Below are positions 1 through 29,757 of a stretch of DNA of 64,000 bases, in pieces. The stretch spans positions 11,092 through 75,091 of the forward strand of contig JBEKGR010000008.1 in the NCBI GenBank assembly GCA_050012695.1, written 5' to 3'. This DNA is from Sedimentisphaerales bacterium (GTDB taxonomy: Bacteria > Planctomycetota > Phycisphaerae > Sedimentisphaerales > Anaerobacaceae). The position numbers were made by a program, and so were the translations under genes. The stretch's first letter is position 1; every line of letters starts with the position of its first letter. The notes under the pieces are model-generated. The model was not told where the DNA came from. It did not search any database and saw nothing but the letters and a program-made list of their open reading frames with translations.

Positions 1-475
1 ATTTAACTGTCCCGCCCGTTTGCAATGGGACCTGAACTCCGAGGTCGGCCGTCTGGCTTTTATATTTTTGTGCTTGTTCAACTACAACCGATGGCTGGTC
101 TATGCTGCTATAACTTAAATTCGTGAAAAATGACGATTCGAACTTCGCTTCTTCTGCGCTTACCTGCCTGGCCGCCAACGTCGGCTCAATCAATTGAACC
201 TTCAAATCCAGGTTGTTCTTTAAAGTCATCGCCCGGCACTGCTCGATGCTGAGTTTTATCTCACCCTGCGCCGGTTTATTGACCTCTACTCCCTCATTCG
301 GGTCGTTCTTTTCTTCCAGTTTCAGCGTTTTAATCTCTCTGGTCTGCTCGGGCTTTACCTTTACCTCAAGAAAATCATCTTCTTTGGCAAACTCCTCACA
401 GCCGGCCAAAGCAATCGACATTCCCAGCACAAACATCAAAAATAAACTCTTCACAACAATCACTTTCCTACTCAT
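1..475 (-). CDS. TolC-family outer-membrane efflux lipoprotein, N-terminal part (continues past the left edge; absent from the supplied ORF track)
   Basis: Manual reverse translation from the ATG at 475 gives MSRKVIVVKSLFLMFVLGMSIALAGCEEFAKEDDFLEVKVKPEQ...IEQCRAMTLKNNLDLKVQLIEP. It has a signal peptide with an LAGC lipobox and a TolC/OMF-like N-terminal motif. The start overlaps the permease stop by 8 nt, so it is the last gene of the adaptor-ATPase-permease operon. Confidence 0.6.
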   Translation of the reverse strand, partial: MSRKVIVVKSLFLMFVLGMSIALAGCEEFAKEDDFLEVKVKPEQTREIKTLKLEEKNDPNEGVEVNKPAQGEIKLSIEQCRAMTLKNNLDLKVQLIEPTLAARQVSAEEAKFESSFFTNLSYSSIDQPSVVVEQAQKYKSQTADLGVQVPLQTGGTVK

Positions 476-1727
476 GTCTAAGCGATTCAATGGGGTCGAG
501 CCGGGCGGCTTTTATCGCCGGGAACATCCCGAAAACTATTCCAACTGTACCCGCGAAACCAAACGACAAAGCTATCGCCCAGGCGGGTATATATGTTTTT
601 TCCAGCAGCGGACTCATATGCGCTATCCCGAAAGTCAGAAGTTTGCCCACGCCGACGCCGACAAGACCGCCTACAAAGCACAGTATTATCGCCTCAATTA
701 AAAATTGCGTCAGTATGGCGGACTTCTTTGCGCCAACGGCTTTTCGCAGTCCTATTTCCTTCGTCCGCTCGGATATCGAGACGAGCATTATGTTCATAAT
801 GCCTACTCCGCCGACCAGCAGAGAAATTCCGACTATGCCACCGGCGACCAGCGTTACCACAAGTGATATATTATTAAATGTCTGTATCGCGCTTTTGAGG
901 GACTCAACCCTGAAGGTATCCGGCTCGTCAGGATTAAGGTGTCGTTCGCGGCGGAAAAAGAATTTCAGCTCACCAACACCTTCATCGACAACCTCTGCCG
1001 ACTTCCCATCGGCAAGTGCCCATATCCAGAATTCCCTCTGGAATTTTGAAGCCGCATCGAAAGGAACAATTATTTCGTATCGCTCCTGTCCCCCGCCGCC
1101 GAATTGAAGGTCGTTGCGTTTTTCAATAACCCCGATTACACGGAAGTTCCTGAATCCTATTCGAATCGTTTCACCGATGCAGTCCCGGTCCATACCCAGC
1201 TTATCACGAAGTTCCGGCTCAATCAGGCAAACCATTTTCCCCGTGTCTATATCCGACAGTTCGCGGCCTATGACAAGCGGCCTGTGTTCAATCGAATGCC
1301 ACGCCGGCTCAACGCCGTAAATGTGAGCGTTCTGCACCGACTTCTCATTGTATTTTATCGTGTACTGCCCGGCCTCACTTATCTTTGTGAAACGCTGTAG
1401 CGACGGGCAATGCTCCAGAAGCCCCTCGAAGTCCCTTATTTTAAATCTTACATCCCACCACGTCAGCGTGCGCTTAAGTCCTTTATCAGGCAATTGCGGC
1501 TGAACTATTATCGTGTTGCTGCCGAATGTCTCGACCTGGCTGAGTATTTTCGCCTTCAGGCCCGTCAGCGCCGCTATCACCGCCGTAACAGACGCGACAC
1601 CGATAACTATCCCAACCGTCGTAAGTATCGACCTCGTTTTGTTGGCCCATATCTGCCCAAGGGCAAGATAAACGCTTTGGTAAACAAGGCGGATGAACAT
1701 AAGCGGCACGGCAAACAATCCCCTCAT
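468..1727 (-). CDS. MacB/FtsX-family ABC efflux permease
   Basis: 419 aa with an N-terminal TM, a large periplasmic domain and a C-terminal FtsX-type TM bundle (GGIVGISLLVGGVGIMNIMLVSISERTKEIGLRKAVGA). It overlaps the upstream ATPase gene by 4 nt. Confidence 0.85.
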   Translation of the reverse strand: MRGLFAVPLMFIRLVYQSVYLALGQIWANKTRSILTTVGIVIGVASVTAVIAALTGLKAKILSQVETFGSNTIIVQPQLPDKGLKRTLTWWDVRFKIRDFEGLLEHCPSLQRFTKISEAGQYTIKYNEKSVQNAHIYGVEPAWHSIEHRPLVIGRELSDIDTGKMVCLIEPELRDKLGMDRDCIGETIRIGFRNFRVIGVIEKRNDLQFGGGGQERYEIIVPFDAASKFQREFWIWALADGKSAEVVDEGVGELKFFFRRERHLNPDEPDTFRVESLKSAIQTFNNISLVVTLVAGGIVGISLLVGGVGIMNIMLVSISERTKEIGLRKAVGAKKSAILTQFLIEAIILCFVGGLVGVGVGKLLTFGIAHMSPLLEKTYIPAWAIALSFGFAGTVGIVFGMFPAIKAARLDPIESLRHE

Positions 1728-2488
1728 TCTGCATCCTCCGCTTTTTGGCCTGGCTTTTGTTCGTGGATATTGTCCTCGTCCGTTGTCCTGTCACTGCAAA
1801 TGTTACCGTCCTGCATCCTTATTATTCTTTGGGCGTGCTGCGCGACGTCGTACTCGTGCGTTACCATCACAATCGTCTGTCCCTGCCTGTGAAGCTCGTC
1901 GAAAAGCGCTAATATGCTGTTACTTGTCTTGGTATCGAGATTTCCCGTCGGCTCGTCGGCAAGCAGTATGCTCGGATTACAAACCAGCGCCCTGGCAATC
2001 GCAACCCGCTGTTTTTCGCCGCCCGAAAGCTGATTCGGCTTGTGTTTAACCCTGTCGCCCAGTCCGACCCGCTCAAGGGCCTTTTTTGCTCTGGCCGCCC
2101 TTCCAAACCACCCGTCGCGGGCATACAGCAGCGGCATCTCGACATTTTTCAAGGCGTTCATCTGGGGCAAAAGCTCAAACGACTGAAACACAAAACCAAT
2201 CCTTTCGTTGCGTATCTTCGCCAGTTCCGAATCCGCAAGCTCCGTAACGTTGTCGCCGTCAAGCTCATACACTCCTTGGCTTGCCCGGTCTAAGCACCCC
2301 AGCACGTTCATAAGCGTACTTTTGCCCGACCCGGAATGGCCCATCACCGCGATATATTCGTTCTCCCGCACCTCCAAATCCACGCCGTCCAGCGCATGTA
2401 TCTCTTCCACGCCGACCCTGTAGAATCGTTTCAGCTCCCTTAGCCGGATTACCACTTTCTCGTTTGGATTACCTGCCTGCTGATTCAT
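1724..2488 (-). CDS. ABC transporter ATP-binding protein (MacB/LolD type)
   Basis: Walker A GHSGSGKST, signature LSGGEKQRVAIARAL, Walker B ILLADEPTGNLD and H-loop VTHE. Confidence 0.9.
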   Translation of the reverse strand: MNQQAGNPNEKVVIRLRELKRFYRVGVEEIHALDGVDLEVRENEYIAVMGHSGSGKSTLMNVLGCLDRASQGVYELDGDNVTELADSELAKIRNERIGFVFQSFELLPQMNALKNVEMPLLYARDGWFGRAARAKKALERVGLGDRVKHKPNQLSGGEKQRVAIARALVCNPSILLADEPTGNLDTKTSNSILALFDELHRQGQTIVMVTHEYDVAQHAQRIIRMQDGNICSDRTTDEDNIHEQKPGQKAEDAE

Positions 2489-3887
2489 TGCTGTCGCTCT
2501 TGCCGTTTTTGTTTTTGGATTTTCCTTTTGCTGTTTCCCGCTCGTCTTTCAATTTCTGGTCCTGCTTGAGATTGTCCAGAACCTTATAAGGTCCGACTAC
2601 AACCTTGTCGCCCTCTTTAAGCCCCGCCAGAACTATCGTATGTGTCAAATCGCTTTGCCTTGCCTGGACGGGTGTAGCAACGGCTTTGCCGTCAATAAAC
2701 CTGTAAACAACCGTCGCGAATTTCTTACCCTTATCAAGCTCGGCGCTTTTATCACGGATATCCACCGGCAAACTGTCAACCTCTCTTGCCAGTATCGCCT
2801 GACTCGGCACAGTGATAACGTCGGGGTGTTTCCTCGTCTCGATATCAATGTCCGCCGTCAATCCGGTATAAAGCTTTGAGACATTCGAGTCGTTATCAAG
2901 CAGGATTTCCGTGCGGTAATATCTTGTCCCGTTATTGCTGAACCTGTGTTTTAGCGCAATCTCATCGACTGCACCTCTGAACTTGACATTGGGAAATGCC
3001 TGCACGCTCACAATCGCTTTTTGCCCGACCTCAAGCGCCCCGATATCCGCTTCATCAACCTGCGCCACCACCAGCATCTTAGAGCGGTCCGACACCTCCA
3101 TTATCACCGTCCCCGGGTTATTCATCGTCCCGGTCATTACCATTTCACCCACCTTGGCATTGACACGCGTTACAACGCCGTTGATTGGCGAGGTTATCGT
3201 AGTGTAACTGTAGTATTCCTTCGCTTCTTCAATCCTGGCTTCCGCGGCGTCGAGATTATGCTTCAATACCGTTATATTCTTTTCAGACGCCTCCAGATTA
3301 TATTTGGCCGACAGATATTGCCCCGCAAGCTCATCGACCTTGTATTTTATCAGGTCAAAATCTGCCTTGCTTATGTCTCTCGATTCAAACAGCCCCTTTT
3401 TCCTTTCGAGGTCCTTTTGTGACTGCTCCAGTGTAGCAGCAAGAGCCACAAGATTCGCTTTGCTGCCCTCAATCCTCGATCTCTCAACCTCTACCTGTGC
3501 CTCCTCTGCCGACCTGCTGGCTTCAGCTAATTTCAACTGGCTCTCCAAATCCTTTGCGTCAAGCTTGACCAGCACCGACGCAGGTATCGGCGGGTTAGCG
3601 TTCGGGTCGCCGCAGGTAACAACGTTGCCCTCGTCATAGGGCATATCAATTATCCGGGCAGACACCTTTGCGCTTATCTGAACCATTTCCTTTGGCTCAA
3701 TCTCACCCGTTGCGCTTACTCGCTCGGTCAAATCCCCGCGCTTGACCTCCTCAATACGCACCACTTCCTCTTTGGCTTTTCCTTTGTAACTTTTGGCCGC
3801 CAGCCCGCCAATCACCAGCAGCACTAAAACCACCACTATTGTAATAATAATCCATGTTCTACGTTTTTTCACAACCACACCTCTCAC
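2469..3887 (-). CDS. HlyD/MacA-family periplasmic adaptor (membrane fusion protein)
   Basis: 472 aa with an N-terminal membrane anchor (WIIITIVVVLVLLVIGGLAA), a long coiled-coil hairpin region and a beta-barrel C-terminal part. It is the first gene of the efflux operon. Confidence 0.8.
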   Translation of the reverse strand: MRGVVVKKRRTWIIITIVVVLVLLVIGGLAAKSYKGKAKEEVVRIEEVKRGDLTERVSATGEIEPKEMVQISAKVSARIIDMPYDEGNVVTCGDPNANPPIPASVLVKLDAKDLESQLKLAEASRSAEEAQVEVERSRIEGSKANLVALAATLEQSQKDLERKKGLFESRDISKADFDLIKYKVDELAGQYLSAKYNLEASEKNITVLKHNLDAAEARIEEAKEYYSYTTITSPINGVVTRVNAKVGEMVMTGTMNNPGTVIMEVSDRSKMLVVAQVDEADIGALEVGQKAIVSVQAFPNVKFRGAVDEIALKHRFSNNGTRYYRTEILLDNDSNVSKLYTGLTADIDIETRKHPDVITVPSQAILAREVDSLPVDIRDKSAELDKGKKFATVVYRFIDGKAVATPVQARQSDLTHTIVLAGLKEGDKVVVGPYKVLDNLKQDQKLKDERETAKGKSKNKNGKSDSNESAGR

Positions 3888-4152: not shown

Positions 4153-4226
4153 TACGCCCGACAGGATTCGAACCTGTGACCTACGGATTAGAAATCCGTT
4201 GCTCTATCCAGCTGAGCTACGGGCGC
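4153..4226 (-). tRNA. tRNA-Arg (anticodon TCT)
   Basis: The reverse complement reads GCGCCCGTAGCTCAGCTGGATAGAGCAACGGATTTCTAATCCGTAGGTCACAGGTTCGAATCCTGTCGGGCGTA. It folds as a cloverleaf with a 7-bp acceptor stem (G1-U72 wobble), an ACGGA/TCCGT anticodon stem, the loop TTTCTAA and a GGTTCGAATCC T-arm. CCA is not encoded. Confidence 0.9.
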
Positions 4227-4307
4227 TAAATTTTTAAGTGGTGGTAGTATAACAACTTCTATCTTGCTTTGCCAATATCTGAAATGTCTTAGGGAGTTAA
4301 AAAGTGT
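4188..4307. repeat. Direct repeat copy A (120 bp): tRNA-Arg positions 1-38 plus 81 bp of upstream promoter region
   Basis: 119/120 identical to 21419..21538, with a single mismatch at 4293/21524. The inner boundary falls exactly at the end of the anticodon loop. Confidence 0.95.
4246..4275 (-). promoter_or_regulatory. Putative tRNA-Arg promoter (-35 TTGGCA, 18-nt spacer, extended -10 TGTTATACT)
   Basis: The minus strand reads TTGGCAAAGCAAGATAGAAGTTGTTATACTACCACC, about 20 nt upstream of tRNA position 1. It lies entirely inside repeat A. Confidence 0.5.
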
Positions 4308-4483
4308 CAGTCGCCCCCTGTTTTGGCTTCTCTTAATCTCTTAAAATCACTATGATCTGTTTCTGCCTGAATCTTGTGCCACGCATTGTAAACGGATGCT
4401 GTCATGCCGGGGTTCTAATTATAAGTGGCTCAGTTTTCGGGGGTAAGGTCACCGATAATATTAATAACCGGAAAGTACAAGTT

Positions 4484-4924
4484 ATGAAGCATTCTGAAAA
4501 ACTTAAAATTCTGTTTCTTTGCACCGGCAACTCCTGTCGGAGCCAGATGGCCGAGGGCTGGGCGAGAAAGTTTAAAAGCGATTCGATTGAGCCGTATTCG
4601 GCTGGTATAGAGCCACACGGTCTTGACCCGATTGCTGTCAAGGTTATGGCTGAGGTCGGCGTCGATATATCGAATAATCGCTCAAAACACCTCGACGATT
4701 TCAAAGGCGTAAATTTTGATTTCGTTATCACCGTCTGTGACCACGCCCACGAACACTGCCCCATTTTCTCCGGAAAAACCAGAGTTCTTCATTTCGGTTT
4801 TGATGACCCGCCTCGACTGGCAAAACAGGCAGCAAACGAGCAGGAAGTATTGGACATTTATCGTAGAGTGCGTGATGAAATAAAGGCGTTTGTGGAACAT
4901 TTACCAGATAACCTGGCGGAATGA
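4484..4924 (+). CDS. arsC: Arsenate reductase, thioredoxin-coupled LMW-PTP family
   Basis: Starts MKHSEKLKILFLCTGNSCRSQMAEGW, carrying the CX5R P-loop. It also has the Cys pair VCDHAHEHCP, as in Cys10/82/89-type ArsC. The start was moved to ATG 4484, codon 45 of the tracked ORF. Confidence 0.85.
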   Translation: MKHSEKLKILFLCTGNSCRSQMAEGWARKFKSDSIEPYSAGIEPHGLDPIAVKVMAEVGVDISNNRSKHLDDFKGVNFDFVITVCDHAHEHCPIFSGKTRVLHFGFDDPPRLAKQAANEQEVLDIYRRVRDEIKAFVEHLPDNLAE

Positions 4925-4944
4925 TACAGAAGCCGATTCGGCTG

Positions 4945-5499
4945 CTACGCATTAACCATGTTCCCTGAGCAGCTTCGTTTAAAAGCGATATAATCCTGCT
5001 CCTGCTGGTTTTCATTTCTGCAAATTTCCAGCATTCGATGGTTCTCATAAAGCCACGATTCCGCCCCGGGGCTTTTACCCATATCGAGGACAAATCTGAT
5101 ATTGACGCTAATGTCTCTCAGTGGCTCGATACCAGGTTCGCTGGATGCAAACTCCATAATCTCATCGATGTCTTCTATTACAACGCCTGTATAATACTGT
5201 TGATGTTCCCAGCGGTGCGGCACAATCAGTACGCAGCTTAGATTACTGAATGCCGACGGCCGGCCGAGCAGCAAAATGCCTGGGTCTATGACGGGTATAT
5301 ATGAGCCGTTAAATTCTATAACGCCTCTTATATGAGTGGGCTTCTTGTAATCGAGCTTTATAAGTTCCCTACAGCCCAGGCAACGCAGGTTTAATTTTCG
5401 TGTCTTGGTTTCATGAGCAAGCAGAAAGGTCGTAAACCAGTAATATTTGCTTTGGCTGATTTCTTCAACTTGCTGTGGCTCTTTTGTCATCGTTACCAT
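4945..5499 (-). CDS. CheW-like domain protein
   Basis: The core IRGVIEFNGSYIPVIDPGILLLG...CVLIV...YTGVVIEDIDEIMEF follows the CheW pattern (GV.NLRG..vPVvDL ... ivv ... G.vVD.V.eV). The rest of the protein is unassignable. Confidence 0.5.
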   Translation of the reverse strand: MVTMTKEPQQVEEISQSKYYWFTTFLLAHETKTRKLNLRCLGCRELIKLDYKKPTHIRGVIEFNGSYIPVIDPGILLLGRPSAFSNLSCVLIVPHRWEHQQYYTGVVIEDIDEIMEFASSEPGIEPLRDISVNIRFVLDMGKSPGAESWLYENHRMLEICRNENQQEQDYIAFKRSCSGNMVNA

Positions 5500-5553
5500 T
5501 TCTTTCTCCTTAAACTTTGAACTATATCGAACTTCCTCAATTACTACGTCCTC

Positions 5554-5607
5554 AGATTAATAAAGGGTTGTCAGTGGTTTATTAAATTTCTGTTAGGAAT
5601 TGGTTAA
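5554..5607 (-). promoter_or_regulatory. Pho-box-type promoter for the CheW-like gene
   Basis: The minus strand reads TTAACC-N5-CTAACA-N5-TTAATA-N5-CTGACA. The 5-mer units start on the plus strand at 5603, 5592, 5581 and 5570, an exact 11-bp phase. Nine nt further on is TAATCT (5559..5554). Confidence 0.6.
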
Positions 5608-5685
5608 TCACCATCAATATGTGTATGCCTGAAATATTCAGGAGAGGACACAAATCAATTTGACGTTCATTGTGAAGCCGCAAAT

Positions 5686-5739
5686 TTAATTCTTTTCTAA
5701 TCGATGCCTAATCGCACATCAACAAAAACGCATTAGACT
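5686..5739 (+). promoter_or_regulatory. Pho-box-type promoter for the DUF1559 / PstS-dockerin genes
   Basis: TTAAT, CTAAT, CTAAT and TCAAC(A) sit at 5686, 5697, 5708 and 5719, an exact 11-bp phase. Nine nt further on is TAGACT (5734..5739). This implies a leader of about 230 nt before the ATG at 5974. Confidence 0.55.
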
Positions 5740-5973
5740 TCTCTTCCAAATTACAGGGTTGCAGTTCAAGTATGGTGATTAGGAAAAAAGGAATGTCGAA
5801 ACTAAAACCGGTATCGCGATCAGTCGGAAGGTGCAGAAAAACTATCCCCAAATTTTTTAAAATTTTGGATTTTGGCAACCGTTCCAATCTGAGAAATGCC
5901 GGTTTTTTGTATGTTACCCGGGCCTGGAGGTCCGGACTATGAATAAGGGTTTTATTGGCTAAGGAGCGGTTTT

Positions 5974-7095
5974 ATGAAGGAATCAATTGTGGAAGCAAAA
6001 CAGGACGGAGTTTCAAAACGAAAACGAAGTATTATGCAGCAGTCGGGGTTCACTTTGGTGGAGTTGCTTGTCGTGATAGCCATCATTGCCTTGTTAATGG
6101 GAATATTGCTGCCAAGCTTAAACAAGGCAAGACAAACGGCATATTGCGCTAAAACAGGCGGCAATCTGCATAACGTGGGGCTTGCGATAGAAACATTCGC
6201 AGCTGATTTCGGGTCTTATCCGCCCTCGTATTTGTATCCCAAAGATGCGACTGTCGATGACGTTAAGTCAATAATGTGCAATGAGGACGAAAGCCATCCG
6301 TACGGCTATGTGCACTGGTCATGGTTTCTGTTTGAAAGCGGACGCGTGGATGCAAGCGCATTTACCTGCCCCGCGGTCAAAGGCGGCGGATGTCCTCGCA
6401 CCAATCCGGGCAAGAAGTTGTCTGATTGGGAAAATGGCCAACAGGACCAGACCAGCAGCAGCGGACCAAACCCCACGCTTCAGGATAAGCAGGCGCCTCG
6501 AATGGCGTTTACCGCCAACGCGGTGATTATACCGAGGAATAAATTCACCTGCGATGACACAGCCGGTTTAGCAAGGCATAACCGGCTTGTGACCCCCACG
6601 GAAATTCAACGCCCTGCCGAGGTAATCCTCTTAACCGAGTTTAACGAGGATTGGCAGGCCATTGAGGCGGTGGACAGTGGCTCCGGAACACTAGTAAGTA
6701 AAAGCCACAGGCCTATTCTGCCTTTTACGCATAGCGCAGCCGGTTATGCCGGCTACGCCATATATAATGATGCAGGGACCCGTTTTGAATATGGGACGGG
6801 ATATAATACCGCGAATGTTTCCTGGGGGCTTAAGAACTTGGCGGATATTTCAAACCCAGCTAACCATTTCATTGACGGAGAAACCGGTCATCAGCTTAAC
6901 GCGGTAGGCAGACATCATCCCGGCACATGGAAAGCCACAACCGATAAGGGAGCAAACCAGGATATGGGCGGCACCACGATGTTCCTTTATTGCGACGGAC
7001 ATACCGAGAGAAAAACAATTCTGGAGACGGTTCAAAAACTCGAATGGGGCAAAAAATTCTACAGTGTAACGGGCGACCAGTTGGTCTTTTATTGA
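5974..7095 (+). CDS. DUF1559-type protein: prepilin-like N-terminal methylation domain plus a C-terminal H-X9-DG-like motif
   Basis: Has ...QQSG/FTLVELLVVIAIIALLMGILLPSL (class III signal, Glu at +5) and the C-terminal motif MFLYCDGHTE. An AAGGAG RBS lies 7 nt before the ATG at 5974. An alternative start at 6034 would give a short leader. Confidence 0.8.
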   Translation: MKESIVEAKQDGVSKRKRSIMQQSGFTLVELLVVIAIIALLMGILLPSLNKARQTAYCAKTGGNLHNVGLAIETFAADFGSYPPSYLYPKDATVDDVKSIMCNEDESHPYGYVHWSWFLFESGRVDASAFTCPAVKGGGCPRTNPGKKLSDWENGQQDQTSSSGPNPTLQDKQAPRMAFTANAVIIPRNKFTCDDTAGLARHNRLVTPTEIQRPAEVILLTEFNEDWQAIEAVDSGSGTLVSKSHRPILPFTHSAAGYAGYAIYNDAGTRFEYGTGYNTANVSWGLKNLADISNPANHFIDGETGHQLNAVGRHHPGTWKATTDKGANQDMGGTTMFLYCDGHTERKTILETVQKLEWGKKFYSVTGDQLVFY

Positions 7096-7292
7096 TAGCG
7101 GATGATATTTAGGTGGCCGCATAATAAATTAACAAAGAACTTATTTTATTGAGAATAAAAAAGAGTGAAGGAGAAAGGAGTGACTGTAAGGTAAAAAGCA
7201 AAACTGGCGACGGGCGAGGGTGTTGAACATTAATAAGTAAAATTTAATTTATGTGTATAACTTGATAACTTTAGGTATTGTTAGGAGGAAAA

Positions 7293-9890
7293 ATGAGTAT
7301 TAGGAAAACTGTTTTTACAATTACAGCTTTGTGCTGTATCCTGCAGGCCTCACTTTTTGCGGCTGCATACGGCAACAGAAACCAGGTAAATATCACAGGC
7401 GCGACTTTGTTTGCGAATTTCTTCGCGGCGCCCGCGGGAACCAATGACTACTTAGGCGTTGACCAGGGTCTTGATTATATGGACAGCACCGGCGCTCGCC
7501 TGTACACTGACGGAGATTTCTTCCGGCTCTATGACCCGTATAATGCCAACCTCCCTGACCAATTGGCATTCACCGACTGGACTTCGACTGACGCGAATAA
7601 CCGCTGGGTAGTGCAAAGTCGCGGCGTCGGCAGTGGTAACGGTTTGAAAGAGCTCGACCTGTTCTATAACAGCGCTCCTCCCGGTCCGGGCGACCCGAAT
7701 TTTGTACTCCCAAATGACAAGTCATATATCAACCGTACGCAATGGGGCTACTCCGGCGGATTGATGGGCCCCGGTAATGCAGCTAACCCGGGTGGATGCG
7801 TTGTAGTTCCGCCAAGAATTGATATGGCCGTTATGGATGTTCCGCCGACATGGTTTGTGATGGCAGGCACAGATGTAAATGCTGACTGGCAGGCACATCC
7901 GCTGGATGCGACAAATGGCTATGGCCGTAACCCGATTAAATCATGGGACACCGCCCAGAGCAATAAATTGAAATCCCTGACCAACCTGAATTTGAACAAA
8001 GACCTCGGTTTAGCCGCTAATGCGCTGACCATATATGACACCCAGGTAGCATGGGTTCCAATTGCGTTTATTGCCAGCCAGGGAACCGGCTTGCAAAATG
8101 TTACTCAGAATGATTTGGAATATCTGTATTTGACCGGTCGTATGCCCGGCGGTGAAAACCTTTATGCCTGCACACGCGACTCCGGTTCAGGCACTCGTAA
8201 CGCAGCAATGAACTCTCTTGGTTTTGACCCGAGCTGGGGCAGAGGCGACAATATGGGCACCAAGAACTCAAATGGTAACGTTTCTTATGTCGGACCAATC
8301 CATCAGTCAAGCAACCTCGACGGCACAAGTGTTATGGCAAATGCCGTTACGAGCCAGCGTTTGGCGGTCGGATACGTCGGTCTTACAACTGCTAACACAG
8401 CAACCGGCGCGTCCAACTCGGCTTATCAAATACTGAATCTCAAAAAGACAGGCGGCACACAATATGTCAGGCCTTCACGCGAAAACACCGTAGATAACAG
8501 TGGTATTGATACCGGCTGGCAAGTCGGCGGAAACGAGACCTTCGCGACAGTCGGCAGTCCTGACCCAACTGCTGCCTTCGTGATGCCTTACAACAGGGCT
8601 GCACGCGACTATCTCTGGAACATCAAAACGAGTATAGCCGAATTTATTGCCCCCACCGGCGCTGACGATTTGAATAATATGCCCGGTCAGTACCTGGCCA
8701 GGAACTGGTCGCTGGCTGCCGCTCTCACGGCAATTCCAGATGACGTTAATCATAACCCGAGCGTTTTCGTTGCAAATCCGAATTACAACGCGAATGTGAA
8801 TGCGTATTACAAGGCACTGGGCCCAGTTACACCGGCCTGGGTCGATGGCCCGGGTAAAGTCCCGACAAGAGTTGTCGGCCCCGTCTACAGCGATGGCACA
8901 ACCGGCTCGTACTACCTTGCTTCGGATGGAACACATCTTGCCAACGGCGGAAATCTGAATGCCCGTAACACAATTATGGGCGACTTCGACAACGACGGAA
9001 AACGCGACATCGGCGACATTCACGATATGATGGTTGCATTCTCCAATCCTCGCGGCTTCGAGACAGCCGGCGCAACCGGCGTTTGCCCGGAAATCATCGG
9101 CGACTTCACTGCCGACGGCAACTTCACAACCGATGATATTCGTTACTTTGCCGATGGTCTGGCAGTTGTTGACCCGGTCAGCAAACAGGTCAATCGCTCA
9201 GTTGGTTTTGCATTAGTTGACCAGGCCTGGACCGCAGCCCTTGCTGCTATCGATAGCAATCATCCGACAGCAGGTAACTTCTTCAATACGACTCTTGCAC
9301 ACGGCACCTATCAGGCCGGTTCCGGCTGGTCAAAGGCCGACGTCGCAACGCACAATTGGAGAACAACTAATCCGAACATTGGTTATGCCCCAAGCGCAGA
9401 TGGCACAATTGACGCCTGCGACATTGACTACATCTACTTCACACAGCGCGGCGGACTTAAGGCAAAGTCCTTTGGTCAGACCCTGGCTGCCAACTGCAAC
9501 TCGTGGCAGAAAGCTATGAGCTGGAGCAACCTTGATGACGCTATATGGATGGATTTGACCTGCGACCTCAATGGCGATATGAAAGTTGATATCGAAGACG
9601 TCAGAATCATCGTTGAAGACATCCTCGGAACACATTTCGGCGATATAAACCTAGATGGCGTTGTTAATGCTGCCGACATTGCGATTATTACCGCTCACCT
9701 TGGTCAACAGGGCGGCTGGGCACAGGGTGATGTGGATGGTGACGGCTGGATTACCCAGTGCGACCTCGATATCGCAAACGGCCTTGTACAAATAGGCGGA
9801 CAAGTCGGAAGTCCTGACCTCAACGGCGACCACTTTGTGGACTTCCAGGACTTTGCTATCTTTGCAAATAGCTGGCTGCAGAGTATTTAA
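7293..9890 (+). CDS. Secreted PstS-fold (PBP_like_2) substrate-binding domain protein with C-terminal dockerin/EF-hand-like repeats
   Basis: Signal peptide MSIRKTVFTITALCCILQASLFAAA. PstS-like landmarks are GVGSGNGL and YACTRDSGSGTRNAA (compare VSRDTSSGTYETF in the PstS at 16164..16982). There are at least five D-x-D/N-x-D-G Ca-loop repeats (DFDNDGKRDIGD, GDFTADGNFTTDD, DLNGDMKVDIED, GDINLDGVVNAAD, GDVDGDGWITQCD, DLNGDHFVDFQDF). An AGGAGG RBS precedes the ATG at 7293. Confidence 0.7.
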   Translation: MSIRKTVFTITALCCILQASLFAAAYGNRNQVNITGATLFANFFAAPAGTNDYLGVDQGLDYMDSTGARLYTDGDFFRLYDPYNANLPDQLAFTDWTSTDANNRWVVQSRGVGSGNGLKELDLFYNSAPPGPGDPNFVLPNDKSYINRTQWGYSGGLMGPGNAANPGGCVVVPPRIDMAVMDVPPTWFVMAGTDVNADWQAHPLDATNGYGRNPIKSWDTAQSNKLKSLTNLNLNKDLGLAANALTIYDTQVAWVPIAFIASQGTGLQNVTQNDLEYLYLTGRMPGGENLYACTRDSGSGTRNAAMNSLGFDPSWGRGDNMGTKNSNGNVSYVGPIHQSSNLDGTSVMANAVTSQRLAVGYVGLTTANTATGASNSAYQILNLKKTGGTQYVRPSRENTVDNSGIDTGWQVGGNETFATVGSPDPTAAFVMPYNRAARDYLWNIKTSIAEFIAPTGADDLNNMPGQYLARNWSLAAALTAIPDDVNHNPSVFVANPNYNANVNAYYKALGPVTPAWVDGPGKVPTRVVGPVYSDGTTGSYYLASDGTHLANGGNLNARNTIMGDFDNDGKRDIGDIHDMMVAFSNPRGFETAGATGVCPEIIGDFTADGNFTTDDIRYFADGLAVVDPVSKQVNRSVGFALVDQAWTAALAAIDSNHPTAGNFFNTTLAHGTYQAGSGWSKADVATHNWRTTNPNIGYAPSADGTIDACDIDYIYFTQRGGLKAKSFGQTLAANCNSWQKAMSWSNLDDAIWMDLTCDLNGDMKVDIEDVRIIVEDILGTHFGDINLDGVVNAADIAIITAHLGQQGGWAQGDVDGDGWITQCDLDIANGLVQIGGQVGSPDLNGDHFVDFQDFAIFANSWLQSI

Positions 9891-10001
9891 CTTAGGATTC
9901 CTTCATAGGCCGAGATAAGCTGCTGAGGCGAGTACCCGTCGTACCTCCAACGGCAGGCCCTGGGAGAAGTGAGCACATACTTTTCCTGGGGCCGCTCGGT
10001 T

Positions 10002-10421
10002 TTAAACGAGCAAATAAATACCCCAGATATTATACCAGGCAGCGAAAATATATACAACCGACGTGGTGAGGAAAATTGAATAGGCGAATTTTCTGCAGTA
10101 AATTGCCACGTACAGACACGCCGCCCACTTCCATAATGCCGCCACCATTGGCCCGGCAACGGGGCCAAATACGACGGAAGCGAATCGGACAACCGGATGT
10201 ATCTCCGCAGAAACGCCGAGGTATGACATAAAATAAACGGTGCTAAGACCATCCGCAAGCAAAGCCAGCGTAAATACGAATATGGCTATGCGATAAGTGT
10301 GCCAGAAGCCGCGGTAATTTAATTTTAAGCGATTACTAATTGGAAGAAGCCCCGCCTCCGCAGCTATCTGCTCGCAAGCAAGCACGTTAAAATTGTCCTT
10401 TTTGGCTTGCCCAAAGTGCAT
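10002..10421 (-). CDS. Small integral membrane protein (about 4 TM, possibly DUF5658-like)
   Basis: 139 aa and hydrophobic, with LADGLSTVYFMSYLGVSAEIHP resembling the D..T...G..E.NP motif. Chosen over the overlapping ORF 9887..10258. Confidence 0.35.
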   Translation of the reverse strand: MHFGQAKKDNFNVLACEQIAAEAGLLPISNRLKLNYRGFWHTYRIAIFVFTLALLADGLSTVYFMSYLGVSAEIHPVVRFASVVFGPVAGPMVAALWKWAACLYVAIYCRKFAYSIFLTTSVVYIFAAWYNIWGIYLLV

Positions 10422-10618
10422 TTTAACTTATCTCCACTTTTCCCGATATTCCAAAATCAACCCTATAATCGACAACTGACAGGACGCCCTTAACAAGTTC
10501 TACGTCGGCAATGTCCGCGAGTTTATTGAAAAAATAATGAAATACTAATAAAGTCCTAACGCATTTAGAAGATGGCTTCATCTTTAAGCTTTAACTTTGG
10601 CTGAATATCCCTGAAATT

Positions 10619-10672
10619 TTAATCGTATTTTAATTAGTTGCTAACGCAACTCCAACGTATCGCCGGTATCTT
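10619..10672 (+). promoter_or_regulatory. Pho-box-type promoter for the second DUF1559 gene
   Basis: TTAAT, TTAAT, CTAAC and CCAAC sit at 10619, 10630, 10641 and 10652, an exact 11-bp phase. Nine nt further on is TATCTT (10667..10672). The implied leader is about 160 nt. Confidence 0.5.
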
Positions 10673-10837
10673 ATCTCTATGTGTTGCGGGCAGATATGTG
10701 GCTGGTAGATGCCGTATCCCGCAGCAGGATTATGAAGTTGATACAAAGAATGGTTTTAGGGCTGGGGATACAGATATCTCCTCCTTGAAGGAATCGTAGA
10801 ATTGTTTTTTGGACAATGGATTGAGAAGGAGAAAAAG

Positions 10838-11848
10838 ATGCTTATGAAGAAAAAAGGATTTACGCTGGTAGAACTGTTAGTCGTCATTGCGATAATAGCG
10901 CTATTGATGGGCATTCTGCTGCCTTCATTGGCACGTGTCAAGGTAATCGCAAACAGGATGAAATGCGCCTCTCACCTGGCCGATGTCGGTAAATCTATGA
11001 TGATGTATGCGGAAGAGAACCGGCAGAGTTATCCGGTCGGAGGCATCCGTGGCAGCACATGGACACAATTTAATACAACTACCACCGGCATCTTGAAATG
11101 GGACGCATCAACAAGGGAATTGGCATTCGCAAACAACGGCAAGAATGCCACGATATCTTCGTGCCTGTTTTTATTGATTAAATACGGCAATATGGTGCCT
11201 AAACAATTCACCTGCCCGGACGATGCCGATGCCAAAGAATTTACTTTAGCCGATGAGTATAAGTCCATGGGTGTTACAGACACCACCAAAATGATCAGGG
11301 AACTTTCGGACGCCTGGGACTTTGGCGGCAACCCCGGCGCAAGCTGCAGTTATTCATATCATATGCCCTTCCCAAACACCGATGACGTCACAAAATCATA
11401 TTGTTTAGACCAAGTATCAAGTCCGGGAAGCCCGCTTTGTGCGGACAGAAATCCCTACCTGGATAAAAATGCCAAAGATTACCTGAAAGACCCGAGGATT
11501 CCTAATCCATATCTGGGAGCAACAGACGGGGAATACCACGATGACAAATTCAAAGGTAATTGTGCTTCTCATGGCCGCAAGGCGCAAAACGTTTTATTTA
11601 ACGACGGCCACGTCGCCGCCGAGTTGTATCCAAATTGCGGGGTAAACAACGACAATATATGGAAGTTCTGGCCTTCCTATACCACGGCGCCTACAAATAT
11701 ACAACTTGAAGTTGGAGCAGGGACAGCTCCTCCTCCGGCGTCGGCAAGCGCAGAAAATCTCCAATATACACCAGGCGCTGGTTCTGCATCTCCAAAGAGT
11801 AAAGACGATGCCTGCCTTGTCAACGAAAGAAACGATAATAAAGAGTAG
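10838..11848 (+). CDS. DUF1559-type protein: prepilin-like N-terminus plus an H-X9-DG-like motif
   Basis: Starts MLMKKKG/FTLVELLVVIAIIALLMGILLPSL and has the C-terminal motif HGRKAQNVLFNDGHV. An AAGGAG RBS precedes the ATG at 10838, codon 13 of the tracked ORF. Confidence 0.8.
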   Translation: MLMKKKGFTLVELLVVIAIIALLMGILLPSLARVKVIANRMKCASHLADVGKSMMMYAEENRQSYPVGGIRGSTWTQFNTTTTGILKWDASTRELAFANNGKNATISSCLFLLIKYGNMVPKQFTCPDDADAKEFTLADEYKSMGVTDTTKMIRELSDAWDFGGNPGASCSYSYHMPFPNTDDVTKSYCLDQVSSPGSPLCADRNPYLDKNAKDYLKDPRIPNPYLGATDGEYHDDKFKGNCASHGRKAQNVLFNDGHVAAELYPNCGVNNDNIWKFWPSYTTAPTNIQLEVGAGTAPPPASASAENLQYTPGAGSASPKSKDDACLVNERNDNKE

Positions 11849-11865
11849 TTTGCATTGCATTCGTA

Positions 11866-11901
11866 AGGGGCGGAGTATGGTCGTTCGGAACATCCGCCCC
11901 T
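11866..11901. terminator. Hairpin between convergent genes (candidate bidirectional terminator)
   Basis: AGGGGCGGA (11866..11874) pairs with TCCGCCCCT (11893..11901), a 9-bp GC-rich stem. The U-tract is weak (GTTCATTCT). Confidence 0.4.
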
Positions 11902-12640: not shown

Positions 12641-12665
12641 TTTTGAATCCTCATTATTAAAGTGT

Positions 12666-13529: not shown

Positions 13530-13532
13530 TGT

Positions 13533-16156: not shown

Positions 16157-16163
16157 CAGGTAA

Positions 16164-16982: not shown

Positions 16983-17003
16983 TTCGTTGTCTCCTTCTCA
17001 CTT

Positions 17004-17057
17004 AGTTTAAGTGAGCATTGTTAAAATTATGTTAATAATCGGTTAATCTTTCGTTAG
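17004..17057 (-). promoter_or_regulatory. Pho-box promoter of pstSCAB-phoU
   Basis: The minus strand reads CTAACG-N5-TTAACC-N5-TTAACA-N5-TTAACA. Plus-strand GTTAA/GTTAG units sit at 17053, 17042, 17031 and 17020. Nine nt further on is TAAACT (17009..17004). An 8-bp leader hairpin CTCACTTA/TAAGTGAG (16997..17015) follows. Confidence 0.7.
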
Positions 17058-17069
17058 AGCAAATCATCT

Positions 17070-18362: not shown

Positions 18363-18432
18363 AAAACACTTCTTTATTACCTGAACGCTGACCCGAGACC
18401 ACCCCGGATGGCGATGTACCCGTTGAGGTCGG

Positions 18433-18486
18433 ATTTTACGTGAGTTTCGCTAAAGGCCCGTTAAATTGATGTTAGAATTGCGTTAA
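18433..18486 (-). promoter_or_regulatory. Pho-box promoter of the porin gene
   Basis: The minus strand reads TTAACG-N5-CTAACA-N5-TTAACG-N5-TTAGCG. Plus-strand units sit at 18482, 18471, 18460 and 18449. Nine nt further on is TAAAAT (18438..18433). Confidence 0.65.
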
Positions 18487-18524
18487 TTAAGGGGGTTATT
18501 GGAGTAAGTTGAGAAAATGTTTAT

Positions 18525-20351
18525 CTAAATAGGCAGGTGAATAGTGAAGGTGCTGCCCTGGCCGGGAGAGCTTTCGACAGAAACTGAGCCGCCGTGAAGA
18601 TTGGTGATATGCTTGACGATGGCAAGGCCAAGGCCCGTCCCGCCGAGTTTTCTCGTGCGGGCCTTGTCAACAACGTAGAACCGCTCGAATAAGCGTGAAA
18701 GATGGCTCTCTTCTATGCCGCAGCCCGAATCCTTCACCGCGATTGTCGCTTCCTTGTCGTCTTTTCTGGCGCTTATCTGAATCGTGCTATCGGCAGGACT
18801 ATATTTAATAGCGTTATCAACGAGATTCAAAACCGCCTGCTCGAGCAAAGTCGGGTTTATCAACGCCTCCAAATCGTCATCGCAATCAATCTCGATTTTG
18901 ATTTTCTTATCGCCTGCCTTCGGGCCGGAAAGCTCAATTGCTGATTCCAGCACTGGTCTGACCGTCAAATGTTCCCTCGCAATCATCCTCTTCTGGCCGT
19001 CTTCTTCCAGGCGGGACAAGCTCAGCAAATCTTCTATAATCGCCATCAATCTGTCCGTATGGCCCGCTATAATTTTGAGAAATCGCTGTGCCTGCTCGGG
19101 TTCGTTAATGGCGCCGTCTAAGAGCGTCTCAACGAATCCTTTGATGGAAGTAATCGGCGTTCTCAGCTCGTGCGAAACGTTGGCCACAAAGTCGCGCCTG
19201 ATGTTTTCCAGCCGCTGCATTCTTGTCATATCGCTTAATACGATAACGGCTCCGTTTTTATTGCCCTGATGGTCGGTGAGGTACGTGCCCCTTGCCCGCA
19301 GCGAAACGGGCTGCTCTGCTCCGCCATCGGCGCTGCCGATGGCGAGACCTCGCTCGTCCCTAAGGGACGAGGCGGGCGCCATAACAATATCCTCTTCGGT
19401 TGGCGTAGAGGACATCAGGGTATATCGCATAAATCGCTGGATATCCACGTTCCTGATGACCTCTTCAATACTGTGTCCCGTGGCTGAGACGACATCTATC
19501 TCAAGAAGCATCGCCGCTTTTTTATTGATGCTCACGACTCGTCCGTCCGAATCCACGGCTATCACGCCCTCGGCCATACTGCTTAAAATCGCTTCAAGCT
19601 GATTCTTCTGGTTTGTTATGGTTTCGATTGTTCGCTTCAGGCGGTCAGCGGTTTCGTTAAGCGCACCGGCAAGCTCGGCTAATTCTTCAGAATCCGGCAC
19701 CGGCACCCTGTGGTCCAACTGCCCCGTGGCAAACCGCTTCGCGGCGTCTTTCATTTGTTCGATTGGCTTGGTTATCTTGCGGGATACAACCAAAGTTACG
19801 CCCGCCGCACAAACCGCCGCCCCGATAACGCCCCACGCGATTTTTGCGTAAATATCATTTAGCGCCTTGTCAACAGCGATAACCGAAAGCGACCCGCGAA
19901 CTACAGCTATTGTTTGCTCCTGTTCTTTGAGAGGCACAGCGATATACATCATATTTTTGCCAAGGGTGTCGCTGAATCGCACGCTCCTGCCTGTCCGCCC
20001 GTTCATCGCCTGCCTGAATTCAGGACGGTCCGCGTGATTTTCCATTTTGGCCGGCTGCTGGTCCGAATCACCTACAACCCGGCCGTCAGGCAGTATCATC
20101 GTAAGCCGAATCCCGGCGGTTTGACCAAGCAATTTGCACACTTGGTCAACTTCCTCGAAATTTTTCTGGTTCACAGCGGGTAAAATCTGCTGCCCTGCAA
20201 GCCGGGTCCTCGATTCGAGGTTTTGCGCAATCTCATCGTAATAAAACCAGCGGAACGAATAAGACGCATACCAGCTTAAAAGAACAAGCGATAAGATAGT
20301 AATTATCAGGTAGGGAAGATAAAGCTGCCAAAGCAGCCGCTTCTTTGCCAT
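18525..20351 (-). CDS. phoR: Sensor histidine kinase PhoR
   Basis: 608 aa with 2 TM flanking a periplasmic domain, then HAMP, PAS, HisKA (SHELRTPITSIKGFVETL) and HATPase (GGTGLGLAIVKH). It lies 3 nt downstream of phoB. Confidence 0.85.
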   Translation of the reverse strand: MAKKRLLWQLYLPYLIITILSLVLLSWYASYSFRWFYYDEIAQNLESRTRLAGQQILPAVNQKNFEEVDQVCKLLGQTAGIRLTMILPDGRVVGDSDQQPAKMENHADRPEFRQAMNGRTGRSVRFSDTLGKNMMYIAVPLKEQEQTIAVVRGSLSVIAVDKALNDIYAKIAWGVIGAAVCAAGVTLVVSRKITKPIEQMKDAAKRFATGQLDHRVPVPDSEELAELAGALNETADRLKRTIETITNQKNQLEAILSSMAEGVIAVDSDGRVVSINKKAAMLLEIDVVSATGHSIEEVIRNVDIQRFMRYTLMSSTPTEEDIVMAPASSLRDERGLAIGSADGGAEQPVSLRARGTYLTDHQGNKNGAVIVLSDMTRMQRLENIRRDFVANVSHELRTPITSIKGFVETLLDGAINEPEQAQRFLKIIAGHTDRLMAIIEDLLSLSRLEEDGQKRMIAREHLTVRPVLESAIELSGPKAGDKKIKIEIDCDDDLEALINPTLLEQAVLNLVDNAIKYSPADSTIQISARKDDKEATIAVKDSGCGIEESHLSRLFERFYVVDKARTRKLGGTGLGLAIVKHITNLHGGSVSVESSPGQGSTFTIHLPI

Positions 20352-20354
20352 CCA

Positions 20355-21038
20355 TTAGTCCTTGAAACGATAGCCCACGCCTCTTACGGTCTCAATGTAT
20401 TTTCCGAACTGGCCGAGCTTGCGCCGCAGCGACACAATCTGCACATCCACGGCCCGGTCGGTCACAACATAATTGCTGCCGCGAATCGCGTCAACTATAT
20501 TGTATCTGCTTAGCACCAGTCCTGGTCTCTTCGCAAGCGTGTAAAGAATCATAAACTCCGTAAAGGTCAGTTCAACCGGCTTGTTTTTGAGTTTCACCTC
20601 GTATCGGGCGGGGTCTATTGTTAAATCGTGAATCTTGACGGGCGTATTTTCCTGCTTTGCTGCTGTGGCCCTGTATAGAATCCGCCGAACCCTGGCGATA
20701 AGAACCTTTGGGCTAAACGGCTTTGTTACATAATCATCCGCGCCGACCTCCAAGCCGGAGACAACATCGGACTCCTCACCTTTGGCAGTCAGCATTATTA
20801 TAGGTATTGAGCTGGTTTTCGAATCGGCCTTAAGCTGCCTGCAAACTTCGATGCCGTCTATCCCCGGCAGCATACGGTCAAGCAGTATGGCGCTGGGCGG
20901 GTTGGCCTTCGCCTTTTTCACCGCCTCTTCGCCGGTAACAGCCGTTTCAACTTTGAATCCTTCTTTGTTGAAGTTGTAACGCACCAGTTCCAGCACATCT
21001 TCTTCGTCATCTACAGCGAGTATGCTTCCTCTAACCAC
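20355..21038 (-). CDS. phoB: OmpR-family response regulator PhoB
   Basis: Receiver domain (DDEEDVLELV ... LDRMLPGIDG ... MLTAKG) plus a winged-helix domain (IETVRGVGYRF). Confidence 0.85.
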   Translation of the reverse strand: MVRGSILAVDDEEDVLELVRYNFNKEGFKVETAVTGEEAVKKAKANPPSAILLDRMLPGIDGIEVCRQLKADSKTSSIPIIMLTAKGEESDVVSGLEVGADDYVTKPFSPKVLIARVRRILYRATAAKQENTPVKIHDLTIDPARYEVKLKNKPVELTFTEFMILYTLAKRPGLVLSRYNIVDAIRGSNYVVTDRAVDVQIVSLRRKLGQFGKYIETVRGVGYRFKD

Positions 21039-21067: not shown

Positions 21068-21121
21068 AGTATCCACTGTCTATGTTAGCAAATGATTAGT
21101 TTAATGTAAAAACTTTGTTAA
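21068..21121 (-). promoter_or_regulatory. Pho-box promoter of phoBR (autoregulation)
   Basis: The minus strand reads TTAACA-N5-TTTACA-N5-CTAATC-N5-CTAACA. Plus-strand units sit at 21117, 21106, 21095 and 21084. Nine nt further on is GATACT (21073..21068). Confidence 0.65.
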
Positions 21122-21418: not shown

Positions 21419-21457
21419 TTAGAAATCCGTTGCTCTATCCAGCTGAGCTACGGGCGC
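21419..21457 (-). pseudogene. Truncated tRNA-Arg(TCT) copy: positions 1-38 only (acceptor 5' strand, D-arm, anticodon stem 5' strand and loop)
   Basis: Identical to 4188..4226. No matching 3' half (no ggattcgaacc on the plus strand) occurs anywhere in 21039..21418. Confidence 0.9.
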
Positions 21458-21538
21458 TAAATTTTTAAGTGGTGGTAGTATAACAACTTCTATCTTGCTT
21501 TGCCAATATCTGAAATGTCTTAGAGAGTTAAAAAGTGT
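21419..21538. repeat. Direct repeat copy B (120 bp), including a second intact copy of the tRNA promoter (-10 at 21477..21482, -35 at 21501..21506)
   Basis: 119/120 identical to 4188..4307, offset by 17231 bp. Confidence 0.95.
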
Positions 21539-28515: not shown

Positions 28516-28523
28516 AAAAATCC

Positions 28524-29729: not shown

Positions 29730-29757
29730 CCTGAATCTCCCGTCTTAAATCAACCTG

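Follow-up and report, generated by a model that had tools for sequence, protein, structure and literature searches.

A 474-bp intergenic spacer in a Sedimentisphaerales genome, lying within the 64-kb stretch of contig JBEKGR010000008.1 (assembly GCA_050012695.1) that we annotated with Pfam and NCBIfam and refer to as the window, very probably holds two divergent PhoB-dependent promoters that evolved independently of each other. The leftward promoter faces a gene for a CheW-like protein. The rightward promoter faces a gene for a prepilin-type, pseudopilin-like protein, followed by a gene for an 865-aa secreted protein with dockerin modules and a predicted PstS/DING-like fold. Phosphate control of both gene sets is an in silico prediction, supported by the architecture and statistical significance of the two box arrays, the co-occurrence of like arrays at pstS, a porin gene and phoB, the conservation footprint of the arrays, synteny with pho genes and the PstS-like fold. 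From these we infer that PhoB binds and activates rather than represses, and likewise the transcription start, the operon structure and a role in phosphate capture.

Both arrays consist of four YTAAYN hexamers in exact 11-bp phase. On the minus strand the boxes are TTAACC (5607-5602), CTAACA (5596-5591), TTAATA (5585-5580) and CTGACA (5574-5569), and 9 nt after the fourth box stands a -10 hexamer, TAATCT (5559-5554), with about 48 nt left to the ATG at 5499. On the plus strand they are TTAATT (5686-5691), CTAATC (5697-5702), CTAATC (5708-5713) and TCAACA (5719-5724), again with 9 nt to a -10 hexamer, TAGACT (5734-5739), where most relatives have TAGAAT or TAAAAT. A first-pass annotation of this DNA had given all of these strings and coordinates, and the limits of the spacer, correctly to the base. 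It had also described the arrays as two copies of the same 54-bp module, which holds for their architecture and not for their sequence: the two 54-mers are only ~52% identical, and their common bases lie mostly inside the boxes. For this reason we rejected an origin of the two arrays by recent inverted duplication.

To gauge the role of chance we searched the two strands of the window for sets of four YTAAY pentamers spaced in 11-bp phase, leaving gene positions unused (maximum score 20). Only six sites in the 128 kb of scanned strand scored at least 19/20, at 5607(-), 5686(+), 10619(+), 17057(-), 18486(-) and 21121(-). All six are intergenic and oriented toward the adjoining gene, and each has a -10-like hexamer exactly 9 nt past box 4 (TAATCT, TAGACT, TATCTT, TAAACT, TAAAAT and GATACT). 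The 11-bp phase and the 9-nt gap, proposed earlier as common to the pstS, porin and phoB promoters, were thus borne out and extend to a second pseudopilin gene. The mean number of sites at this score was 0.0 in 200 dinucleotide-preserving shuffles of the window; among 20,000 shuffles of the spacer, at least one site arose in 1e-4 (0.01%) and two sites never. A two-unit position weight matrix (PWM) derived from the 24 units of the six arrays placed its top 20 window matches inside the arrays, with the best background match scoring lower, and its core information content was highest at TAAC; because the matrix was built from the same six sites, this is a consistency check and not independent support.

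The PHO box is defined by two or more 11-nt direct-repeat units with a conserved core (PMC4415409). Each spacer array has four such units, the same motif is found at pstS and phoB, and a box takes the place of the -35 element with a 9-nt gap to the -10. The genes bordering the spacer are adjoined by a complete Pho system, phoU-pstBACS-porin-phoR-phoB. A consensus scan for sigma-70 promoters and terminators over positions 4900-7400 found nothing relevant; these promoters lack a -35, and the loop of the leader hairpin described below is too long for the scanner. An auxiliary phased half-array was observed at 10523-10561 (+), 58 bp before the main array that faces the second pseudopilin gene; it includes a strong two-unit box, CTAATAaagtcCTAACG, at 10545-10561 and is conserved in L001-L003, L077 and L078 (L numbers denote related loci).

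The related loci came from 293 homologs of the 865-aa protein, from a genome scan that gave 74 loci, and from extra contigs reached by exact-protein look-ups and by a metagenome scan with the CheW-like family. The names of the homologs agree with Sedimentisphaerales (Phycisphaerae, Planctomycetota), and L001-L004 come from fen and SPRUCE peat samples. Inspection of orthologous loci, which the first-pass annotation had named as a check, showed both arrays wherever the CheW-like/pseudopilin arrangement is retained (L001-L003, L075/76, L077-L079, L081 and L086). Both were also kept in L080 and L083, whose contigs end too early to show the pseudopilin gene. Altogether the minus-side array is conserved in 17 orthologous loci and the plus-side array in 12 loci, nine of them unique. 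In L075/76 the proteins are 61-63% identical to those of the window (63% for the PstS-like protein), the spacers have been rewritten and the arrays are 15 bp apart instead of 78 bp, with the 11-bp phase, the 9-nt gap and the TAnnnT hexamer all intact.

We quantified this conservation as the percentage of non-consensus bases in the 17 unique minus arrays and the nine unique plus arrays. Variation was lowest at box core positions 2-5 (3.3% minus, 0.7% plus), followed by all box positions (7.1% and 3.7%), and reached 25% and 8.9% in the spacers between boxes and 28% and 16% in the 9-nt gap; the -10 hexamer stood at 11% and 5.6%. The boxes were less variable than spacers and gap on both sides (Mann-Whitney p=9e-5 minus, p=0.009 plus). 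Judged from the alignments, this is the footprint expected for a phased direct-repeat operator with its -10. Together with the arrays at pstS, the porin gene and phoB, and with the gene-neighbourhood links given below, it lends in silico support to the earlier reading of these elements as Pho boxes. A separate feature of the minus side is a ~75-nt insertion in the 5' leader of the CheW-like gene of L002 (~8128-8203), with equivalents in L003 and L078; the window is without it. The insertion holds a hairpin, CGCTGGGGTG...CACCCAGCG, shifts the array from ~108 to ~184 nt before the start codon, and is possibly a small mobile repeat.

Among known systems, the arrays are most readily compared with the Bacillus subtilis PhoP core binding region and the double PHO box of Escherichia coli pstS, which likewise have four 11-bp-phased direct repeats on the coding strand, located from about -60 to -22 in place of the -35, with the -10 about 9-10 bp past the last repeat. 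The B. subtilis PhoP consensus, said to stem from the work of Eder, Liu and Hulett in 1999, is reportedly TT(A/T/C)ACA with 5-bp spacers. The TTAACA-like hexamer of the window nearly equals that consensus, whereas its core, YTAA(C/T), differs from the CTGTCAT of E. coli. The Sedimentisphaerales promoters are also unlike both in standing back-to-back, one of them with a 234-nt structured leader. Cyanobacterial SphR Pho boxes upstream of pst genes have reportedly been described as PyTTAAPyPy(T/A) repeats (by Suzuki et al. in 2004 and Su et al. in 2007). They would share the TTAA-centred core and the 11-bp phase, but their repeat unit is said to have 8 bp, to be followed by 3 bp of spacer and usually to occur three times, in contrast to the four units of the window arrays. 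Our literature searches turned up no report of a planctomycete Pho box or of phosphate control over these families in Planctomycetes, and nothing relevant on DUF1559 proteins.

The first of the rightward genes encodes a protein whose N-terminus (GFTLVELLVVIAIIALL) matches the prepilin methylation domain (PF07963/TIGR02532) with 31.4 bits against a cut-off of 21.2 and has the GFTLxE motif with a hydrophobic helix. The DUF1559 label that it had been given was not sustained: the DUF1559/SBP_bac_10 profile PF07596 reached 13.2 bits against a cut-off of 23.3, over profile positions 3-46 of 268 only, and no NCBIfam match to the H-X9-DG family was found. On these profile scores the product is safely called only a prepilin-type N-methyl protein, DUF1559-like below threshold.

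The downstream 865-aa protein had been labelled PstS-dockerin. The dockerin part was upheld by Pfam (dockerin type I, PF00404, 30.4 bits against a cut-off of 22.9, matched by 13 of 14 homologs), and the protein has a signal-peptide-like N-terminus, large insertions in its fold and repeated dockerin/EF-hand-like Ca-binding modules. The PstS part was undetectable by sequence profiles and stands by fold. The PBP_like_2/TIGR02136 profiles did not match the protein (one of 14 homologs did, at E=0.035), hhalign against the window's own PstS gave a probability of 1%, and in two PDB profile searches the hits listed were dockerins and EF-hands only. A first AlphaFold model, based on a 14-sequence alignment, was not usable (predicted local distance difference test score, pLDDT, 37), and a 97-sequence alignment was used instead (pLDDT 89.3, predicted template modelling score 0.88). 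In a Foldseek search of the PDB with this model, the top 41 matches were all PstS/PhoX/DING phosphate-binding proteins, with E values as low as 2e-6 and a probability of 1.0 for each of the first 39. We are confident, on this structural prediction, that the protein has a PstS/DING-like phosphate-binding fold. Across the 97 homologs there is little or no variation in GATLF, GVGSGNG, D182 and TRDSGSGT, and residues T38/F40, S114, D182, R295 and S299-G300-T301 follow the same order as the PstS ligand motifs. The phosphate-ligand motifs of E. coli PstS are T-F, S, D and R-x3-S-G-T. GATLF, GVGSGNG and TRDSGSGT parallel GSTTVGP, TGSGDG and SRDTSSGT of the window's PstS, a parallel seen at the level of sequence, and the conserved motifs are predicted to be phosphate ligands. 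In other lineages PEP-CTERM replaces the dockerin, which implies a surface location for this family.

The pair has its own links to the Pho system. A pseudopilin ortholog lies immediately upstream of the PstS-like gene in ~70 of 74 Phycisphaerae genome loci, and pst or phoBR genes flank the pair in L010 and L053. L004 (44% identity) has the order phoB-phoR-pseudopilin-PstS-like-x-pstSCAB-phoU, with arrays before phoB, the pseudopilin gene, x and pstS, and a terminator hairpin between phoR and the pseudopilin array. In 67 distant, mostly high-GC Phycisphaerae loci we compared the best phased YTnAC x4 score on the two strands of the 300 bp upstream of the pseudopilin gene: the sense score was higher in 46 loci and lower in eight (Wilcoxon p=1e-6). 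No sense bias emerged when the same test was applied to two control regions, one before the PstS-like gene and one within the pseudopilin coding sequence. Two side observations concern the same genes. The cassette of pseudopilin, PstS-like protein, small open reading frame (ORF) and second pseudopilin (~6.4 kb; window 5554-11900) is absent from metagenome contigs L082, L087 and L089 and is a presence/absence polymorphism. In two distant loci, L040 and L056 (strain ZRK32), an ORF for a ~95-aa receiver-domain-like protein (8342-8635) lies immediately upstream of the pseudopilin gene.

The leftward gene had been called CheW-like, and the label is apt. The protein scores 24.6 bits against the CheW profile PF01584 (cut-off 23.5), over profile positions 33-98 of 138 only, and the three best matches of a PDB profile search were all CheW, at a weak E of ~0.1. 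A profile of the CheW-like family, searched against 1.8 billion proteins, matched proteins that themselves score 108-385 bits for CheW (E ~1e-7 to 1e-5). Since the family profile reaches bona fide CheW proteins, these profile matches make it a genuine but divergent CheW-domain subfamily. Only 46 close homologs were found, all at least 62% identical, and the window annotation contains no cheA or methyl-accepting chemotaxis protein genes and no other chemotaxis genes. In L082, L087 and L089 the gene, with its array kept, directly follows pstA-pstB-phoU and converges on the same low-molecular-weight (LMW) phosphatase gene as in the window. Remote members (36-41% identity), obtained from a profile search of 1.8 billion representatives, lie divergent from a phoB ortholog whose product is 69% identical to the window PhoB (L092), convergent with phoB (L091), or directly downstream of a fragment resembling the second pseudopilin (L094). 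In L093 (119-6500) the neighbours are genes for PFK, two Ppx-GppA_III/HD proteins, a guanylate-kinase-like protein, CHAD and Metallophos, a polyphosphate-type neighbourhood, and a three-box phased array stands upstream of the CheW-like gene. Because the subfamily travels with phoU, phoB or polyphosphate genes, its gene contexts suggest a CheW fold recruited outside chemotaxis.

The rightward promoter had been said to imply an unusually long leader of about 230 nt. This leader is real and conserved (234 nt), and it also holds a terminator-like hairpin that the first-pass annotation had missed. It is ~90% identical among close relatives whose flanking proteins share only 79-86%, a conservation that exceeds that of the adjacent coding DNA. 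The basal stem of the hairpin, in which AAAACCGGTATC (5804-5815) pairs with GAAATGCCGGTTTT (5893-5906), leads into a T6 tract (5903-5908). Separate folds of the window and L075 leaders, as well as alignment folds, concur on this long hairpin and on a short GC-rich one (5918-5935) beyond it. Twelve loci conserve both the stem and a U6-7 tract, among them L080 and L083 with their divergent leaders. In the hairpin alignment 96% of cells are paired, largely owing to invariance; 87 of 500 shuffles reached the observed covariation score, which is not significant. The window leader folds no better than its shuffles (z = -0.06), and L075 has the same shape with z = -2.8. Rfam gave no match to the leader at gathering thresholds or at E<=1, the consensus scan found no sigma-70-like promoter inside it, and exact leader motifs, searched for in all loci, were confined to the close clade. 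A 57-codon ORF starting at 5773 was rejected, having frame-breaking indels in relatives and early stops in L075. An attenuator or small-RNA role of the leader is plausible from its conserved fold, though doubtful enough that we regard it as a refinement only, because covariation was not above shuffles and the window fold had no distinctive z.

The sequence of events that we propose would begin with phosphate limitation, upon which PhoR would phosphorylate PhoB. These form the presumed cognate regulator pair of the locus; phoR and phoB adjoin pstSCAB-phoU, and the PhoR-type kinase reaches 309 bits (cut-off 334). Following the established PHO-box model, two PhoB dimers would bind head-to-tail on the four 11-bp direct-repeat units of each array. 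The promoter-proximal unit would occupy the -35 position and end 9 nt before the TAnnnT -10, so that bound PhoB would recruit a sigma-70-type holoenzyme. Leftward transcription would then yield the CheW-like protein, a putative CheW-domain accessory protein, and rightward transcription would yield a ~227-nt structured leader followed by the pseudopilin and, probably in the same operon, the PstS/DING-like dockerin protein. The last two would likely form an envelope or extracellular phosphate-capture module feeding the PstSCAB transporter encoded 2 kb away.

Several observations weigh against this model. The regulator scores 238 bits against its best match, the NCBIfam equivalog TIGR02154, whose cut-off is 296, so its identity as PhoB rests on the best hit and on context. 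The plus-strand boxes are weaker, with TAAT rather than TAAC cores, and have the lowest PWM score of the six arrays. Between the plus-strand promoter and the pseudopilin gene lies the terminator-like hairpin with its U-tract, so that expression may require more than an active promoter. A gap of 197 nt separates the pseudopilin and PstS-like genes, which makes their co-transcription an assumption. Finally, verified PHO boxes are sometimes without a phosphate response (PMC4415409).

Other explanations of the arrays were considered alongside PhoB-dependent activation. That they are chance features of AT-rich intergenic DNA (GC 0.43 in this region) or remnants of repeat elements has a negligible probability and is effectively refuted by the shuffle counts, with 0.0 sites expected and six observed, and by the footprint, since the arrays stay in register where the spacers have diverged and the two are alike only at box positions. 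It is improbable that they are operators of another OmpR-family regulator whose specificity overlaps that of PhoB and which answers a signal other than phosphate. Phased 11-bp direct repeats are a general trait of the OmpR/PhoB family, the CTAATC boxes of the plus array are somewhat unlike the TTAACA boxes of pstS, and L040 and L056 have the receiver-domain gene just upstream of the pseudopilin gene; however, pstS and phoB of this very locus have the same box core, phase, gap and -10 type, pst/phoBR accompany the target genes in several arrangements that are independent of one another, and one target has a phosphate-binding-protein fold. Still less probable is repression of one or both genes by bound PhoB. 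PhoB/PhoP does repress some promoters (PMC4415409), and the position of binding alone does not give the sign of regulation, but orientation, position and -10 distance are the same as at pstS and the porin gene, whose promoters need activation for the system to work, and there is no separate -35 for the boxes to occlude.

A fourth proposal concerns what the plus-strand promoter yields. It may mainly produce a short, terminated RNA of ~165 nt (5746 to ~5908), either a PhoB-dependent small RNA or an attenuated leader, in which case the pseudopilin and PstS-like genes would be expressed only on read-through of the hairpin, as a second layer of control. This would refine PhoB-dependent activation, and we consider it possible, if tentatively. 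Consistent with it are the retention of the hairpin (5804-5906) and T-tract where the flanks have changed (L080 and L083), the like fold of L075, the leader conservation, and the lack of both a promoter-like site from the U-tract to the ATG at 5974 and a conserved ORF. On the other side stand the non-significant covariation with most pairs invariant, the unremarkable fold of the window and the lack of an Rfam family. In addition, the 80-nt interior is atypical of an intrinsic terminator, the terminator scanner reports none, and L004 keeps a short hairpin only, without the U-tract.

The features of the region are listed in Table 1.

Table 1. Positions of genes, arrays and leader elements in the part of the window surrounding the spacer.
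Feature	Position	Strand	Remarks
MacB/ABC/HlyD genes	468-3887	-	
tRNA-Arg(TCT)	4153-4226	-	intact
LMW phosphatase (ArsC-like)	4352-4924	+	
CheW-like protein	4945-5499	-	divergent, single-domain, 184 aa; Pfam CheW and family profile
Intergenic spacer	5500..5973		474 bp, between ATG 5499 (-) and ATG 5974 (+)
Array facing CheW-like gene	5554..5607	-	four boxes, 9-nt gap, -10
Array facing pseudopilin gene	5686..5739	+	four boxes, 9-nt gap, -10
Conserved non-coding leader	5740..5973	+	234 nt
Long imperfect hairpin	5804..5908	+	terminator/attenuator-like; folds of window and L075, alignment folds
Second short GC-rich hairpin	5918..5935	+	CCGGGCC/GGTCCGG, between U-tract and ribosome-binding site
Pseudopilin-like, prepilin-type protein	5974-7095	+	N-methyl, GspG-like N-terminus, 373 aa
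Secreted PstS/DING-like dockerin protein	7293-9890	+	865 aa; fold predicted
Small ORF	10002-10421	-	no assignment
Third array, before second pseudopilin gene	10619..10672	+	conserved in relatives
Second prepilin-type protein (second pseudopilin)	10838-11848	+	
phoU, pstB, pstA, pstC, pstS, Porin_5, phoR, phoB	11975-21038	-	
Reference array of pstS	17004..17057	-	perfect score, 20/20
Reference array of Porin_5 gene	18433..18486	-	
phoR	18525..20351	-	presumed cognate pair with phoB
phoB	20355..21038	-	presumed cognate pair with phoR
Reference array of phoB	21068..21121	-	autoregulation

Several further features of the window were recorded. The LMW phosphatase ORF has 190 aa, as compared with 146-150 aa in its orthologs, which share the start MQQHGKLKILF, and for this reason the true start is probably internal; an ArsC-like enzyme beside pst would, speculatively, suit the detoxification of arsenate imported by Pst. 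A 63-nt exact direct repeat occurs at 4188-4250 (-) and 21419-21481 (-) and comprises 24 nt upstream of tRNA-Arg(TCT) plus the 5' half of the tRNA through the anticodon loop. One copy lies within the intact tRNA; the other, upstream of phoB, forms a truncated tRNA. The copies enclose 17.2 kb, exactly the whole Pho block from LMW phosphatase to phoB, with no integrase inside. The repeats resemble the att-type scar that a mobile or recombined "phosphate island" would leave, the duplication of the 5' half being unusual. The DNA on the left flank of the Pho block in relatives is unrelated (a tRNA-Met abuts it in L002 and a tRNA-Ser lies 2 kb off in L003), and an alignment of these left flanks, intended to delimit a tRNA-bounded island, gave no boundary. 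About 20 kb from the pseudopilin genes are a type II/IV secretion ATPase gene (T2SSE) and two T2SSF platform genes (27067-30933, -), which could, as a speculation, serve the pseudopilins. Beyond this set are two extracytoplasmic function (ECF) sigma factor genes (31103-33681) with uncharacterised downstream partners. Unrelated to the promoters is a gene at 46494-50870 (+) for a 1458-aa fusion of BcrAD_BadFG activase, DUF2229 and HGD-D, of the 2-hydroxyacyl-CoA dehydratase activase type.

The first-pass annotation had stated that neither gene family is a recognised member of the Pho regulon, which is too strong given precedents in Pseudomonas. By analogy, the closest functional counterpart of the rightward operon is the Psp/DING protein of Pseudomonas fluorescens, a PstS-related protein induced by inorganic phosphate (Pi) limitation, exported by the pseudopilin-containing Hxc type II system, with the proposed role of supplying Pst with scavenged extracellular phosphate (PMC2225411); another is the PstS-rich surface appendages formed by P. 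aeruginosa under Pi limitation (PMC2242829). In contrast to these, the binding protein of the window has 865 aa, large insertions and C-terminal dockerins (PEP-CTERM in other lineages), its partner is a single dedicated pseudopilin-like gene instead of a full hxc cluster, and the pair is conserved class-wide in Phycisphaerae. Furthermore, hxcR of P. fluorescens is not Pi-regulated, whereas the window pseudopilin gene carries a Pho array. For the CheW-like gene the only precedent that ties chemosensory components to low Pi is, again by analogy, Pi chemotaxis of P. aeruginosa, which involves CtpH, and CtpL together with PstS (PMC4926252). The likeness lies in a chemosensory component tied to low Pi and PstS; however, the Pi-regulated parts in P. 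aeruginosa are chemoreceptors, unlike the stand-alone, divergent CheW-domain protein of the window.

The promoter architecture is that of the textbooks, which makes the prediction credible. The regulatory element is of a known kind and its regulon members are unusual and conserved, so that a classical regulon is extended and no new mechanism is introduced; the main interest lies in the genes that are controlled rather than in the type of promoter. From the arrays comes a Pho-box model, (T/C)TAA(C/T)N with 11-bp phasing, that is the first for this class and can serve regulon prediction in metagenome-assembled genomes from peatland and sediment, settings in which phosphorus limitation is of ecological importance. 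Prepilin-type, DUF1559-like proteins without known function number dozens to hundreds in planctomycetes, and for one orthologous group there is now a concrete hypothesis, surface or pseudopilus-assisted phosphate scavenging. In several lineages the pair of this group lies inside the pho locus, preceded by operators of Pho type. The pair is also present in cultured relatives such as Poriferisphaera corsica KS4 (KS4_32210) and strain ZRK32 (CP066225). A broader proposal, to which we give limited credence, is that the Phycisphaerae have a class-wide, PhoB-controlled phosphate-capture device, made up of a surface PstS/DING-like protein with a dedicated pseudopilin, a CheW accessory of Pho or polyphosphate metabolism rather than chemotaxis, and a new PhoB-dependent leader or attenuator RNA. 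If true, a giant PstS/DING-like protein would be displayed at the cell surface through dockerin or PEP-CTERM anchoring, and this would be the first functional assignment for any member of the large pseudopilin-like expansions of planctomycetes.

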